Positions 9,735 through 18,264 of a DNA stretch of 43,138 nt are shown in pieces. A program made the position numbers and the translations under genes. How positions within the stretch are numbered: position 1 is the first letter of the stretch; every line of letters starts with the position of its first letter. The notes under the pieces are model-generated. The model did not search any database, was not told the DNA's origin, and saw only the letters and a program-made list of their open reading frames with translations. Source of the stretch: a virus (Duplodnaviria; Caudoviricetes); IMG/VR virus record IMGVR_UViG_3300022407_002384, positions 1 to 43,138 of that record, one strand, 5' to 3'.

Positions 9735-9923
9735 ATGAACGAACCGCACCCACAAGTTATGGACCTTTACCGCCGCGCAAGAGCTGTTCGCGTGCGGATC
9801 GGACGTCTCATGGACGAAGCCGATTTGCACCCTAGCACTTGGTCTGCATGGATGAACGGGACGACGCCGAACGTGGCGAGCCTGGACAAAGTGGATAAGG
9901 CGCTGAAGGCGAGGGGTGGATGA
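9735..9923 (+). CDS. Cro-like HTH regulator
   Basis: 62 aa; IGRLMDEADLHPSTWSAWMNGTTPNVASL is XRE/Cro-type HTH; first rightward gene. Confidence 0.7.
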   Translation: MNEPHPQVMDLYRRARAVRVRIGRLMDEADLHPSTWSAWMNGTTPNVASLDKVDKALKARGG

Positions 9924-10453
9924 TGCAGTCTTCCGCTCATCTGTATTTTATTCGAGCTGCTGACGGTTCTGGGCACGTCAAAATCGGGCGGTCTTCTAAC
10001 CCCGAAAAGCGGCTTTCGAGCCTTAACGGCGGGTCGCCAGTTCGCCTTACTATTGCAGCGGTCGCGCATGGTTGGGGCGAATATGAACGTCGGTTTCACG
10101 CTCTCTTTGCGCGGGTTCGGTGTCACGGCGAGTGGTTTTTGCCAGACCCGGAAATTGACAGCGTTATTCTTGCCATTCAGCAAAACAGTTTTGACCTAAC
10201 GCTGTTGCCAGCGGCAATTGGTGAGTCGCGCGGCGCCGATGGGTCAGCTCCCGTTCGGCTTGCAAAATCACTCCTCGATGAACTGGGAAGCTACACCGAA
10301 GTAGCGGCAAAGATCGGCGTTGCGCCGGGTGTTGTCGCTACCTGGCGCTCCCGAAACGCCATTCCGCGTTCTGCATGGCCTGACCTTATGCTGAGGTATC
10401 CTCGCAAGGCCAAGCTGGCAGCGTTGGTCGCCACGGAGGCGGTCACGCAATGA
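9920..10453 (+). CDS. T5orf172/MUG113-type GIY-YIG nuclease domain fused to a C-terminal Cro-like HTH
   Basis: LYFI...VKIGRS.NPEKRL..L...SP...E..FH..F...R.HGEWF; C-terminal LGSYTEVAAKIGVAPGVVATWRSRNAIP. Confidence 0.8.
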   Translation: MMQSSAHLYFIRAADGSGHVKIGRSSNPEKRLSSLNGGSPVRLTIAAVAHGWGEYERRFHALFARVRCHGEWFLPDPEIDSVILAIQQNSFDLTLLPAAIGESRGADGSAPVRLAKSLLDELGSYTEVAAKIGVAPGVVATWRSRNAIPRSAWPDLMLRYPRKAKLAALVATEAVTQ

Positions 10454-10704: not shown

Positions 10705-10890
10705 ATGTTCGGATTGCTACGGAAACTGAAGGCGGCGAAGGCCCGCAAGGCCGCTGAACGCCAGCACGAAGAAACCCTCGCCGGGTTTGAACGCCGCATC
10801 GAGGCGGCTCGCGCCAAGCATCAACCCGTCAGGCACATCATGGCTGAACGCACCGACTATATGCACGCGGGTTTGAGGAAAAAGGCATGA
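10705..10890 (+). CDS. Hypothetical basic protein
   Basis: ATG 10705 after AAAGGA; ATGA overlap with the helicase. Confidence 0.7.
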   Translation: MFGLLRKLKAAKARKAAERQHEETLAGFERRIEAARAKHQPVRHIMAERTDYMHAGLRKKA

Positions 10891-12857
10891 GCCCTTATGA
10901 GGAGTTCCTCGCCCGCAAGGCCATCACTGACCCGCACACGGGCCTGACGGACCTTCCCGATCTGCCGGCGATGATGTTTCCTTTCCAGAAGGATATCACG
11001 GCATGGGCTCTGCGGCGCGGTCGGGCGGCGTTGTTCGCCGGGACCGGCCTTGGCAAGAGCCTGATGGAACTGGCATGGGCTGACGCGGTTAGCCGCCACA
11101 CGGGCCGGAACATTCTGCACCTTGCTCCGCTCGCCGTCTCTGCCCAGCTCGTGCGCGAGGCGGACAAGTTCGGCATTGTCGCACATCACGTTCGGGAAGC
11201 TGGCGACGTTCGGCCCGGCATCAACATCACCAACTATCAGAAGATCGAGCATTTCGATCTGTCGGAGTTTGGCGGCGTCATTCTGGACGAGAGCAGCATT
11301 CTCAAGTCAGTGGACGGCCACTACCGCACCCGGCTCATCGAGCAATGCGCGCAAATCCCGTTCCGCCTCGCCGCGACCGCCACCCCGGCGCCGAACGACT
11401 TCATGGAGCTAGGCAATCACGCCGAGTTCCTGGGGGTTATGTCCTATACCGACATGCTGGCGACGTTCTTCGTCCACGACGGCGGAGACACCCAGAAGTG
11501 GCGGCTCAAGGGCCACGCCGAAGACGAGTTCTGGAAGTGGATGGCGTCATGGTCGGTCATGCTTCGCAAGCCGTCCGACCTTGGCTATCCGAACGCCGGT
11601 TATGATCTTCCTCCATTGGAGACGCTACAGCACACGGTCGGCGTCGAATACGCGCCCAGCATGGAAACCGGCCTTCTGTTTCCGATCCAGGCCGCGACCA
11701 TGCAAGAGCGTCTCGCGGCGCGTCGGGCCACTGTGGACGATCGGGTGTTGAGCGCGGTTAGCGTTGTTATGAGCGATCTTTGTGCTAAATATCCAGAATG
11801 CAAAAGTCCCGATGGAAACGACAGTATCAGGAAAACCGGGAAGCCCGATGCGCGGCTGATCCAGAATATGCTGCAAAGTATGCGGAGCAGCAGGCTCGCG
11901 GAAAACGAAGCCCTGATGAAAACCGCGAATACATGCGAGCCTACTACGTCGCGAACCGGGAAAAATGGTCGCGCCGAAGCCCGGAAAAGCAGGCTGAATA
12001 CAACGAAAACCGGCGACAGAGATACGCATCAGATGCCGAGTATCGAGAGCGCGTCAAAATTGCCGTTCGCGACGGGTGCAAAGACGCCAAGCGAAACAGC
12101 CGCCTCAAGTCCGCGTTTGGCATTAGCGCCGACGACTACGCCGATATCCTCGCCAAGCAAGGCGGCGGGTGTTCAATTTGCGGAAGCTCAGAAGGAGACC
12201 GTCGAGGCCGTCGGCTCCACGTTGACCACTGCCACACAACCGGATTTGTCCGGGGGCTTCTCTGCAGCAACTGTAACATTGGCATCGGAAAGTTCCGCGA
12301 CAATCCAGACCGCCTCGACAGAGCCGCTGAATACATCCGTGACGCCGAACAACGACGCATGGGTGATATGGTGCAACCTGAACAGCGAGCAAGCGGCGAT
12401 TAAGGCTGCCCTTGGCGGCCTCGCTATTTCGATAGACGGAAGCCATAGCGAGGACGAGAAGGAGGCGCTTCACATGAAGTGGCTCGCTGGCGATGCGCCG
12501 GTGCTAATTTGTAAGCCTTCGATGTTTGGCCACGGCTGCAATTGGCAGCACTGCCATAAAACCATTTTCGTCGGGCTCAATGACAGCTTCGAGCAGGTCT
12601 ATCAGGCCGTTCGGCGGTTCTGGCGCTTCGGCCAGACGAAGCCCGTGACGGTCCACTTTATCGCCGCTGAGACGGAAGGCGCCGTGGTCGCCAATCTCAA
12701 GCGCAAGGAAGCCGACGCTGACCGCATGGCGGCAGCGATGGTCCTGCACATGGCCGACCTTTCGACGAAAGCCGTTCGCGGTCAGGTTCGGGATCGTCCA
12801 GACTACAATCCGCAACAGTCCGTAAAATTGCCCTCGTGGTTGGAGAATGCCGCATGA
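10887..12857 (+). CDS. SF2 (SNF2-like) helicase with a ~190-aa in-frame insertion
   Basis: Walker A GTGLGKS, Walker B ILDESS, motif III ATATP, C-terminal FGHGCNWQ and QAVRRFWRFGQ; low-complexity insert between the RecA domains. Confidence 0.88.
   Translation: MSPYEEFLARKAITDPHTGLTDLPDLPAMMFPFQKDITAWALRRGRAALFAGTGLGKSLMELAWADAVSRHTGRNILHLAPLAVSAQLVREADKFGIVAHHVREAGDVRPGINITNYQKIEHFDLSEFGGVILDESSILKSVDGHYRTRLIEQCAQIPFRLAATATPAPNDFMELGNHAEFLGVMSYTDMLATFFVHDGGDTQKWRLKGHAEDEFWKWMASWSVMLRKPSDLGYPNAGYDLPPLETLQHTVGVEYAPSMETGLLFPIQAATMQERLAARRATVDDRVLSAVSVVMSDLCAKYPECKSPDGNDSIRKTGKPDARLIQNMLQSMRSSRLAENEALMKTANTCEPTTSRTGKNGRAEARKSRLNTTKTGDRDTHQMPSIESASKLPFATGAKTPSETAASSPRLALAPTTTPISSPSKAAGVQFAEAQKETVEAVGSTLTTATQPDLSGGFSAATVTLASESSATIQTASTEPLNTSVTPNNDAWVIWCNLNSEQAAIKAALGGLAISIDGSHSEDEKEALHMKWLAGDAPVLICKPSMFGHGCNWQHCHKTIFVGLNDSFEQVYQAVRRFWRFGQTKPVTVHFIAAETEGAVVANLKRKEADADRMAAAMVLHMADLSTKAVRGQVRDRPDYNPQQSVKLPSWLENAA
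11764..11797 (+). promoter_or_regulatory. Putative internal (leaderless) promoter for the nested endonuclease
   Basis: TTGTTA-16-TAAATA with extended TG, ending 6 nt before ATG 11798; no SD sequence. Confidence 0.4.
11798..12403 (+). CDS. Endonuclease VII-type (His-Me finger) homing endonuclease nested out of frame in the helicase
   Basis: FGISADDY..IL..QGGGCSICG...LHVDHCHTTG.VRGLLCSNCN.GIG.FRD.P..L..A..Y; basic helical N-terminus. Confidence 0.9.
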   Translation: MQKSRWKRQYQENREARCAADPEYAAKYAEQQARGKRSPDENREYMRAYYVANREKWSRRSPEKQAEYNENRRQRYASDAEYRERVKIAVRDGCKDAKRNSRLKSAFGISADDYADILAKQGGGCSICGSSEGDRRGRRLHVDHCHTTGFVRGLLCSNCNIGIGKFRDNPDRLDRAAEYIRDAEQRRMGDMVQPEQRASGD

Positions 12858-13906
12858 AACAGATTCGCAACATCAAGGCCGTCGATCAGGTCGTGACCGA
12901 TCAATACGCCATCTACCAAGGGGATAGCTGCGAGGTCATCCGCGCCATCCCGGCTGACAGCATCCACTTTGGCGTTCACTCCCCGCCGTTCGAAGGCCTC
13001 TACAAGTTCAGCAACTACGACCGCGACATTTCCAACAATGACGGCGCGGCGTTCTGGGAACATTACGCCTTTCTCATTCAGGAATTGCTCCGCGTCACCA
13101 AGCCGGGCAGGCTCCATTCCGTCCACTGTATGCAACTCCCGATGAGCAAGACACGCCACGGCCATATCGGGATGCGGGACTTTCGCGGGGAGATCATCCG
13201 GGCATACGAGGACGCCGGGTGGATTTTCCATAGCGAGGTCTGCATCTGGAAAGACCCCGTGGTCGCGCAACAGCGAACCAAATCCATTCGGCTGCTGCAC
13301 AAGCAACTGACGAAGGATAGTTCTATCAGCGGGCAGGGTCTGGCCGACTACGTGGTGACGTTCCGCAAGAAGGGCGACAATGAGGAAGCGGTGCAAGGCA
13401 TGTTGGCGCAGTGGATTGGCGCCAAGCCTGACCCGGATCAAATGTCGTGGGCGGATGCCAGAACGGCGGCGGGTATCGACGTTTCGCGGGAAGCCTATGA
13501 CCGCCACGCATCGCAGACCATTTCCGAAGGCCGCACGCCGTGGCCATTCGAGCAGTGGGTTTCCATCCTGGTATGGCAGCGTTACGCCTCGCCCGTCTGG
13601 ATGGATATCGACCAGACCCGCACCCTTCAATATCGCGGGGGTCGCGACCAGAAAGACGAGCAGCACATTTCCCCGCTGCAGCTGGACGTGATCGAGCGGT
13701 GTATCGACCTGTGGAGCAATCCGGGCGACGTGGTGCTGACGCCGTTTCTCGGTATCGGTTCGGAGGTTTTTGCGGCGGTTGAGATGGGCCGCAAGGGCAT
13801 CGGCATCGAATTGAAGCCGTCCTATTTCAAGCAGGCGGTCAAGAACATCGCTCTCGCTGGCCCGCGCTCGAAACCAAACGATCTGTTTTCCGCCGATGCA
13901 GCGTGA
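12854..13906 (+). CDS. DNA amino-methyltransferase (N4-C/N6-A, beta class)
   Basis: Catalytic SPPF precedes SAM-binding VLTPFLGIGS and GIELK; ATG 12854 overlaps the helicase stop. Confidence 0.9.
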   Translation: MKQIRNIKAVDQVVTDQYAIYQGDSCEVIRAIPADSIHFGVHSPPFEGLYKFSNYDRDISNNDGAAFWEHYAFLIQELLRVTKPGRLHSVHCMQLPMSKTRHGHIGMRDFRGEIIRAYEDAGWIFHSEVCIWKDPVVAQQRTKSIRLLHKQLTKDSSISGQGLADYVVTFRKKGDNEEAVQGMLAQWIGAKPDPDQMSWADARTAAGIDVSREAYDRHASQTISEGRTPWPFEQWVSILVWQRYASPVWMDIDQTRTLQYRGGRDQKDEQHISPLQLDVIERCIDLWSNPGDVVLTPFLGIGSEVFAAVEMGRKGIGIELKPSYFKQAVKNIALAGPRSKPNDLFSADAA

Positions 13907-14252
13907 GCCTGTAGGCCCAACCCCTCGCCGTTCCATGACCAGGGCAAGGCGGCTCCGCATTTACATCGCCTGCAATGGCCGGTGTGTTTGCGGGGTCAAG
14001 GTCCCCATGGAAGGAACGGTTATCGACCACCCGACGCAGTTATGGCTCGGAGGCTCTGACGAGGATCATCTGCTGAAGTTCCTTTGCGACCCTTGCAACA
14101 AGCAAAAGACCGCGAAGGACGCCACTGTCAGGGCCAAGGTCAAGCGCATCATTGCCAAGTCTGACCCTGACGCCCGCAAGCCCTCCCGCATGAAATCCCG
14201 CCCGTTCCCCAAGGGGTCGCGGCCCATACCATCAAGGAAGTTCGGACAATGA
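13896..14252 (+). CDS. Small HNH-family endonuclease
   Basis: C.CG...IDH....LGG.D....L..LC.PCN..KT. Confidence 0.75.
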   Translation: MQREPVGPTPRRSMTRARRLRIYIACNGRCVCGVKVPMEGTVIDHPTQLWLGGSDEDHLLKFLCDPCNKQKTAKDATVRAKVKRIIAKSDPDARKPSRMKSRPFPKGSRPIPSRKFGQ

Positions 14253-14896
14253 CAATTTGGACCGACGAGAAGCGCGCCGACATCGCCAAACTCTGGATGC
14301 AGGGACATTCGGCAACGATCATCGGGCGCCAATACGGCGTCAGTCGCAATTCAATCATTGGGGTTGTGCATCGCATGGGAATGAGCGGCATGCGCGAAGG
14401 CCCGTCCATCCCCATGCGAGACAGCGTGAAATGGTCCCCAGACATGGACGCCAAGCTGATCGAGATGGCGAAAAACAAGCTCAACCGCCAGCAAATGGCT
14501 GACACGCTGGGGCTGACCTATAACCAGGTCCTGTCCCGCACGCGCACGCTGAAGATCACCATCGTTGACGCCCGGTCATTTTCGCTGCCTTCGTTCACGG
14601 GGGCAAGCGGAGCCGGGGCGGCTTCCGCAAAGCGCAAGCGCGAGCTGGGTCAGAGCAAGGCCCCGGCGCGGATTGTGTGCGAGCCTGCTGACCCGAACAT
14701 CAAGGGCTGCACTATCCTGACCATCCCTGCCCGTGGGGCCTGTAGATGGCCGCTGACGGGCTCGGGGGCTGATCTGGTTATGTGCGGCCAGCGGTCAAGC
14801 GATGCGACCTACTGCGGCAAACACCATGCGCTAGCGTTCTCCGCCCCCGCCGTCACCGGAAAGCAGCTTTACAGGAGCATTCGCAGATATGCCTGA
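14249..14896 (+). CDS. gcrA: GcrA-like cell-cycle regulator homolog with an extra HTH
   Basis: WTDE....L...G.SA..I....GVSRNSIIGVVHR N-terminus; CRWP......CG......YC..H...AF C-terminus. Confidence 0.85.
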   Translation: MTIWTDEKRADIAKLWMQGHSATIIGRQYGVSRNSIIGVVHRMGMSGMREGPSIPMRDSVKWSPDMDAKLIEMAKNKLNRQQMADTLGLTYNQVLSRTRTLKITIVDARSFSLPSFTGASGAGAASAKRKRELGQSKAPARIVCEPADPNIKGCTILTIPARGACRWPLTGSGADLVMCGQRSSDATYCGKHHALAFSAPAVTGKQLYRSIRRYA

Positions 14897-17570: not shown

Positions 17571-17761
17571 CCAGAGTTGAAATCCGCCGGCAGGCTGAAT
17601 GCTTCGACTGGTCCGAGTGGTTCGGTGTAGACGACATCGCCTCGCCAAGCCCTCGCCACGTGAGCCGCTACGCAGAGTTGGCGCGCTCAGACCAGACGCC
17701 CGTGATGACGATCCTTCACCGCGCGAACGGGCAGCGCGAGATCATGGGGCGCAATGCATGA
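17567..17761 (+). CDS. Hypothetical protein
   Basis: ATG 17567 overlaps the previous stop. Confidence 0.6.
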   Translation: MTRVEIRRQAECFDWSEWFGVDDIASPSPRHVSRYAELARSDQTPVMTILHRANGQREIMGRNA

Positions 17762-18264
17762 CCTGGTATGTCGCCTATACCGGAGTCCGCCAAGAGCTCC
17801 GCGCCGTCGCATCCCTCGCCGAACGGGGCATTGAAGCCTATGTCCCCTGCGAGAAGCACCTGCGCTCTCACGCACGCATTAAGGACACCGTAGAGCGCCC
17901 GATGCTCCCTCGTTACCTGTTCTTCAAGCTGAACGACGGACAGAGCTTCTACACGGTCAAACAGACGGACGGCATTGAGGGCTTCATCGGTGCCAGCCAG
18001 CCGCAATCTATCCCGTTCGAGTGGGTTCACGAAATCCGCGAACGCGAACGCGCCGGGCACTTTGACTACACCCAAGGCAAGGGGATAACCTACGCCAACG
18101 GCGAGGCGGTGAAGATCATCGGCGGCCCGTTTGCCGGGATGCTCGCCACCATCATGGAGGCCAAGCCGGGCGCAAAGCGGGTGTCGGTGTTCATCAAGGC
18201 GCTCGGGAGGCTTACGGGTGGCCCGGCGAAGATTGCGGTTGGGGATTTGGGGAAGGCGGCGTGA
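17758..18264 (+). CDS. NusG/RfaH-family transcription antitermination factor
   Basis: NGN domain WYVAYT...E......L...GIEAYVP...PMLPRYLF; KOW domain GEAVKIIGGPFAG; lies in the lambda Q position. Confidence 0.9.
   Translation: MTWYVAYTGVRQELRAVASLAERGIEAYVPCEKHLRSHARIKDTVERPMLPRYLFFKLNDGQSFYTVKQTDGIEGFIGASQPQSIPFEWVHEIRERERAGHFDYTQGKGITYANGEAVKIIGGPFAGMLATIMEAKPGAKRVSVFIKALGRLTGGPAKIAVGDLGKAA

Follow-up and report, generated by a model that had tools for sequence, protein, structure and literature searches.

The window analyzed here is the complete 43,138-nt virus record IMGVR_UViG_3300022407_002384, which carries terminase, portal and capsid genes. A GcrA gene (14249–14896) points to an alphaproteobacterial host, and two of the three best genome-collection matches are Rhizobium and Mesorhizobium. 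On the + strand, positions 10887–12857 hold a stop-free ORF for an SF2/SNF2-like phage helicase of 656 aa, insert included, assigned from the ORF, the fold and domain matches. Structurally, the fold is Snf2-like, the top Foldseek matches being Snf2-family ATPases, and the helicase motifs are intact: I (11040), II (11283), III (11373), IV (12360) and VI (12603). Directly 3' lies an N6/N4 DNA methyltransferase gene (12854–13906, + strand, from Pfam/PHROG-type matches), whose start overlaps the helicase stop; several relatives encode helicase-methylase fusion proteins. Genes for a T5orf172/MUG113-domain protein (9920–10453), a small HNH protein (13896–14252) and a NusG-like protein (17599–18264) are found near this pair.

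The helicase ORF contains a net insertion of 576 nt, or 192 codons (11769–12344, + strand, ends uncertain by ~4 codons), situated between motif III and motif IV, with the helicase frame left open. Alignment with the closest empty alleles, P0006 and P0009, places it at residues 291–482 to 295–486, corresponding to ~11757–12332 to ~11769–12344; the junction is not sharp against these alleles. A preliminary description of this DNA, drawn from its letters alone, had noted ~190 stop-free S/T/A/P-rich codons within estimated bounds of 11766–12403. The stop-free stretch and its composition hold (47% S/T/A/P); the putative mobile unit is larger than the insertion, extending over ~11748–12565 and taking in a downstream helicase tract. 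In the helicase frame, the insert has no PHROG match. An assembly artifact is ruled out by a single contig from the likely source run, which spans 10800–13000 at a depth of 134 with 0 differences, and by an independent contig from another study covering 12151–12416 with 1 difference; three of the four sequencing runs examined are small-share and were used for individual contigs only. Among the best 120 helicases by score, 67 lack the insert, 49 carry it (window included) and four hold short in-frame remnants that retain differing parts of it. The 48 other carriers are long database proteins, known from the helicase protein alone and thus necessarily stop-free forms. The empty alleles rule out that the insert is a normal helicase domain.

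In frame 3 relative to the helicase, positions 11798–12403 (+ strand) encode an Endonuclease VII/DHHRN-type nuclease of 201 aa. The initial reading of an intact, out-of-frame Endo VII ORF is borne out by the match to PF02945 (Endonuclease_7, E 3e-25) and to 7 PHROG Endo VII families. The ATG lies ~30–40 nt into the insertion and the stop falls, as first proposed, in resumed helicase sequence, ~15–20 codons past the junction. The N-terminal part is helical and Arg/Lys-rich. The catalytic residues D143-H144-H146-R152-N160 and the zinc cysteines C125/C128/C156/C159 are invariant among 55 aligned sequences; the protein thus has the D, H, H, R and N residues and the CxxC pairs of the DHHRN/Endo VII class, and the accessible text of PMC6083498 defines the F-CphI family by these same D-H-H-R-N residues. 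The structure model has a pLDDT of 92, and its fold is weakly nearest Hpy99I and T4 Endo VII (Foldseek, E 4e-3 to 8e-2), with no Foldseek match at E 0.001 or better.

For the same DNA read in the helicase frame, AlphaFold pLDDT is <50 over helicase residues 306–320 and 333–487, against mostly 70–90 in the core; on either side of this low-confidence segment are a helix that ends at residue 300 and, at 492, the strand of motif IV. The helicase-frame insert is thus predicted to form a disordered loop just before motif IV. Swr1, Ino80 and Fun30 are described as having large inserts at this position, between motif III and motif IV, in the accessible part of PMC3781322. In one nested relative, L120 (850–1020), the frame is open across the nuclease, the helicase ends ~50 codons later and another short ORF follows; the helicase is thus perhaps dispensable, and the case for a functional loop-bearing enzyme is correspondingly weaker.

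Since the protein database shows only stop-free forms, DNA loci were fetched by nuclease or flank pattern; the collection scans with the nuclease alignment covered 6 and 4 of 64 parts, so that the counts are samples. Among the matches listed, 320 loci match the nuclease; 31 also match the helicase and, of these, 30 are nested. Although fetched independently of the host frame, all 30 nested loci among the matches listed have an open helicase frame. The preliminary description would have taken host-frame stops in homologous insertions as the mark of a split gene; across these 30 nucleases there are none, and 0 of the 30 loci is broken across the nuclease in the manner of Aeh1 nrdA/mobE. The sole unnested member of the 31, L275, has a free-standing nuclease between helicase and methylase, with stops in both shadow frames, an arrangement that may be ancestral or derived. 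This relative (L275:2380–3061) has its own -10-like motif and ribosome-binding site, and its helicase is intact. Viral contigs searched with the helicase gave empty alleles in 23 of 23 cases, and those searched with the nuclease alone gave 1 nested locus of 80.

The stop test covered 32 nested genes, comprising the 30 loci, L245 and L347; L348, a near copy of L347, and L174 were excluded. Not one host-frame stop is seen in these genes, compared with 142 expected from control codon usage and 71 expected from shuffles of their own codons. Free-standing controls (n = 255) are stop-free in 1 and 5 cases for the two shadow frames. By itself, the window gene is unremarkable, the P of a stop-free shadow frame being ~0.05 under control codon usage and 0.93 with its own codons shuffled; the significance of the open frame therefore comes from the family of nested loci. 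The long open shadow frames of L174 and L325 were set aside as chance, since these loci have no helicase match and a high GC content. At the protein level, where Met followed by M/I/T/N/K forces a frame-3 stop, 23 such pairs are seen against 44 expected in the 55 closest nucleases, and 34 against 28 in 41 distant ones; this test, in which members nested in the other frame are mixed, appears supportive.

Nested nucleases occupy two helicase sites and both possible shifted frames. Among the matches listed, site A, before motif IV, accounts for 12 loci in the window's frame and 8 in the other shifted frame, and site B, before motif V, for 11 loci. Resolution of the nuclease tree is poor (6 of 59 branches starred) and does not fix how many invasions took place. 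A nuclease of the same type is nested, stop-free, in an apparent terminase large subunit gene (L245:489–2801). In L193 (2480–3070), a nonsense codon interrupts the nuclease and the host frame is intact. Locus L288 (294–3215) carries a hidden nuclease at site B and an apparent intein in motif II, recognized by eye. In the helicase frame, a CxC motif occurs at both insert ends in 9 of 11 site-B loci (L024, L112, L117, L119, L271, L272, L273, L277 and L288) and could form a metal clasp; this cysteine clasp is absent from the window and from all 12 site-A frame-3 loci examined.

The two overlapping frames carry distinct evolutionary signatures. Over nine pairs (one saturated), dN/dS is 0.09–0.26 in the nuclease frame and 1.3–2.2 in the helicase-frame insert, a comparison of both frames that had been proposed from the outset. 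The nuclease frame is under purifying selection. Insert identity is 0.29 in the helicase frame and 0.29 in the unused third frame, which implies that nothing in the helicase depends on the specific sequence of the insert. Even so, the composition is biased: relative to control shadow frames, helicase-frame inserts contain fewer hydrophobic residues (14.3% vs 21.5%) and less Arg (5.0% vs 12.1%), and D/E/K are higher in both frame types. At four-fold sites where stops are impossible, T/(A+T) is 0.21 vs 0.49 in controls, and G/(G+C) shifts in opposite directions by frame type (0.34 and 0.71; controls 0.45). For insert composition bias, 19 of 23 genes show values below the resampled ones, these tests counting related genes as independent. 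A polar bias that persists even at sites where no stop can arise suggests that the helicase-frame insert is probably translated, and it fits a translated soluble linker, contrary to what is predicted for an excised RNA.

Expression of the nuclease may depend on a signal within the insertion. A predicted extended -10 element, TG-n-TAAATA (11781–11791, + strand), ends 6 nt before the nuclease ATG. In the window it reads TG-C-TAAATA and misses the final T of its relatives; loss of the last -10 T is common in alphaproteobacterial promoters (PMC7703639, accessible part). The promoter-like sequence first noticed before the ATG proves to be conserved in relatives: TAAAnT is present in the 45 nt before the nuclease start at 14 of 31 loci, compared with 1 of 324 control windows, and is missing in the other 17 of the 31. 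At 9 loci the spacing from the end of a TAnnnT to the start is exactly 6 nt; several others have this motif 26–33 nt upstream, with a purine-rich stretch between. A shadow of the -10 motif is visible in the helicase protein of 38 of 49 carriers and 0 of 67 empty alleles. A generic sigma-70 promoter and terminator scan returned 0 sites. From the -10-like element 6 nt before the ATG, we infer that an internal promoter drives a leaderless nuclease transcript.

Comparison with empty alleles suggests a mobile unit that extends beyond the insertion itself. Against an empty contig of ~93% identity, the match ends at 11747 and resumes at 12566, so that the inferred unit, insertion plus variant helicase tract (11748–12565, + strand), would be 818 nt replacing 239 nt. 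Its 3' part (12345–12565, + strand), resumed helicase from motif IV to just past motif V, is a carrier-type allele that may be a co-converted, cleavage-resistant tract. In 30-aa blocks, the window helicase is 77–100% identical to the empty P0006 outside residues 275–364, but over residues 305–364 it is 43–47% identical to P0006 and matches carriers at 73–83%. The trees reflect this mosaic. On the N-terminal helicase tree, the window's helicase nests with four empty alleles (support 99), there are 14 carrier/empty state changes, 5 of them forced, and the insert is disjunctly distributed among related host genes. In the tree of the downstream part, by contrast, carriers separate cleanly from empty alleles. 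The whole-gene tree, in which the two states separate with only 2 changes, is misleading because of the downstream tract; the patchiness appears only when that tract is left out.

A similar mosaic is found among cultured Gordonia phages. Squiddly gp64 (L347) and Malisha gp71 (L348), annotated only as 'DNA helicase', contain the hidden nuclease, and Holliday gp68 (L349) is an empty allele. Squiddly and Malisha are 97–100% identical over codons 226–550 and 65–100% identical elsewhere, and they differ from Holliday up to the same 3' motif limit as the window tract. The ~70 downstream codons appear to move together with the insert, which is the expectation for homing with co-conversion, and the cut site may be downstream of site A and close to motif V, the region that also holds site B. 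For T4 homing nucleases, co-conversion from a distant cut is established in the accessible part of PMC2988022. Ordinary phage recombination could be a source of such a mosaic. The element is real, selected and probably mobile.

The locus is likely a case of splicing-free homing, in which the helicase would be read straight through with the insert as a disordered loop, and the nuclease would be expressed from its own internal promoter. A selfish element that does not splice and persists as a disordered loop was also the initial interpretation, and it stands as the best reading given the 30 of 30 open frames, the predicted disorder, the empty alleles and the conserved promoter-like motif; the other option raised there, an unknown bypass or splicing route, gained no support. 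The leaderless nuclease transcript would start at ~11798. The nuclease would cut helicase alleles that lack the insert, probably at a position near motif V, downstream of where the insertion sits, and repair would copy the insert together with the ~70 codons of resistant helicase sequence. The 656-aa helicase would fold with its 192-aa loop protruding between motif III and motif IV, a position where Snf2-family ATPases tolerate long inserts, and the third codon positions of the nuclease would be tuned to keep the loop stop-free and soluble. Probably, though with appreciable doubt, the family represents a single lineage of splicing-free homing genes, spread across phyla, that occupies several host sites and in which a soluble de novo linker evolved in both shadow frames.

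It is unlikely that the helicase is read through but crippled by the loop, non-essential, and open mainly as a safeguard against a truncated product or polarity on the methylase. The lost helicase C-terminus of L120 fits that idea, as does the methylase coupling, since the start/stop overlap and the fusions would require an open frame for the methylase anyway. However, of 49 carriers, 49 have an intact motif I, 48 motif II, 49 motif III and 49 motif VI, like the empty alleles, the helicase N-half has a dN/dS of ~0.1 between carriers (two of three pairs, one saturated), and the polar bias of the insert also argues against a crippled enzyme. Quite improbable, too, is removal or clipping of the insert as protein after its translation, through non-canonical splicing or through proteolysis to a two-chain helicase. 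An in-frame, stop-free insert is intein-like, and selection on composition would apply to a transient loop too. Yet, in agreement with the early report of no intein motifs, no intein family appears in the Pfam matches of the 48 carriers and no insert has an HN-C/S/T end, the three regular-expression matches in 49 being GQS away from the junction; no helicase-frame residues are conserved beyond nuclease-frame shadows, and the remnants retain different ends. There is only a slim chance that the helicase-frame product is a new removable protein segment, excised or clipped unlike known inteins, with the helicase left working.

Very improbable is the removal of the insert as RNA, by an unrecognized intron, or its skipping by the ribosome in a T4 gene 60-type bypass. 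Group I introns are indeed among the places where DHHRN nucleases are found (PMC6083498, accessible part), and an unrecognized ribozyme could overlap the nuclease ORF. A known ribozyme cannot fit, because only ~30–40 nt lie outside that ORF, in line with the early remark that a group I intron core has no room here. Rfam gives 0 matches for the window stretch with E up to 5, and 0 for 20 related loci at gathering score. Moreover, the insert folds no better than shuffles as RNA (z -0.78), the inserts share no end nucleotides, a bypass would involve a gap of 576 nt with no stop where the gap starts, and removal before translation needs no open, composition-biased frame. There is similarly little probability that the nuclease is a domesticated partner of the helicase-methylase module, resolvase or restriction-like, spread by ordinary recombination. 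DHHRN proteins include resolvases and restriction enzymes beside methylases (PMC6083498, accessible part), and the nearest folds are those of Hpy99I and T4 Endo VII. Against this role, the nuclease is optional, lacking in 67 of the best 120 helicases; it decays, as in the L193 nonsense codon and the four remnants; it occurs at two sites, in two frames, in a terminase gene and at an intergenic position; and a flanking tract is carried along with it.

Homing nucleases in essential-type genes were assumed to require one of four arrangements: an intron, an intein, a bypass signal or splitting of the gene. A splicing-free route was proposed in 2025 from a handful of actinophage cases, the ShiLan domain and Pacc40 gp60, as hidden out-of-frame HNH insertions recognized by computation only (Arsenault, Gosselin, Gogarten 2025, PMC11855218). 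The ShiLan precedent named in the preliminary description is real, its hosts being mycobacteriophage methylases (PMC11855218). Both elements consist of a stop-free in-frame insertion of ~200 codons with a frame-3 nuclease ORF starting near its 5' end, and both combine the lack of an intron or intein signal with predicted disorder, proposed leaderless translation and a disjunct distribution (PMC11855218). Unlike ShiLan, the present element encodes an Endo VII/DHHRN nuclease rather than an I-HmuI-like HNH and resides in an SNF2-like helicase rather than a methylase. Its nuclease stop lies beyond the insertion, in the resumed host, whereas that of ShiLan lies at the insertion's end. Furthermore, the family of such elements extends over many phyla and uses two sites and both shifted frames, and it shows an internal promoter motif and a putative co-conversion tract. 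By sequence, the helicase element is one that would work like the ShiLan element while belonging outside the ShiLan sequence family.

The preliminary description suggested that an Endo VII version in an alphaproteobacterial phage helicase would extend the class; the accessible part of an intein preprint already reports out-of-frame Endo VII genes inside inteins. Those share the frame-3 gene in an open host ORF but have a self-splicing domain, which is lacking here. The F-CphI/DHHRN family shares the C-terminal D-H-x-H...R...N motif and zinc cysteines; F-CphI itself is free-standing and depends on a neighboring intron, other members are intron-encoded, and none of the members described in the accessible part of PMC6083498 is nested in an open host frame. 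The T4-like cases, mobE in Aeh1 nrdA, mobA in gene 60, and SegF/SegG, share intronless invasion of coding genes and co-conversion of flanks from a distant cut, but they leave the host gene in pieces or depend on ribosomal bypass, whereas the helicase frame here is continuous (PMC2988022; bioRxiv 10.1101/2022.08.31.505936, accessible parts). Within the accessible literature, no paper turned up that describes, for this helicase family, an Endo VII element lacking a splicing domain, and a search for Squiddly or Malisha returned only unrelated topics.

The class has been known since 2025, and what is new is the cultured set of Gordonia phages, the carriers Squiddly and Malisha with the empty Holliday. 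The Endo VII/helicase family suggests that the splicing-free route is common and overlooked by annotation, and that it leaves a measurable selective mark on the second reading frame. The nested nuclease would also illustrate how a long dual-coding region can arise in nature by insertion. Carrier and empty phages alike are cultured on Gordonia terrae, which makes splicing versus read-through, as well as homing, directly testable.
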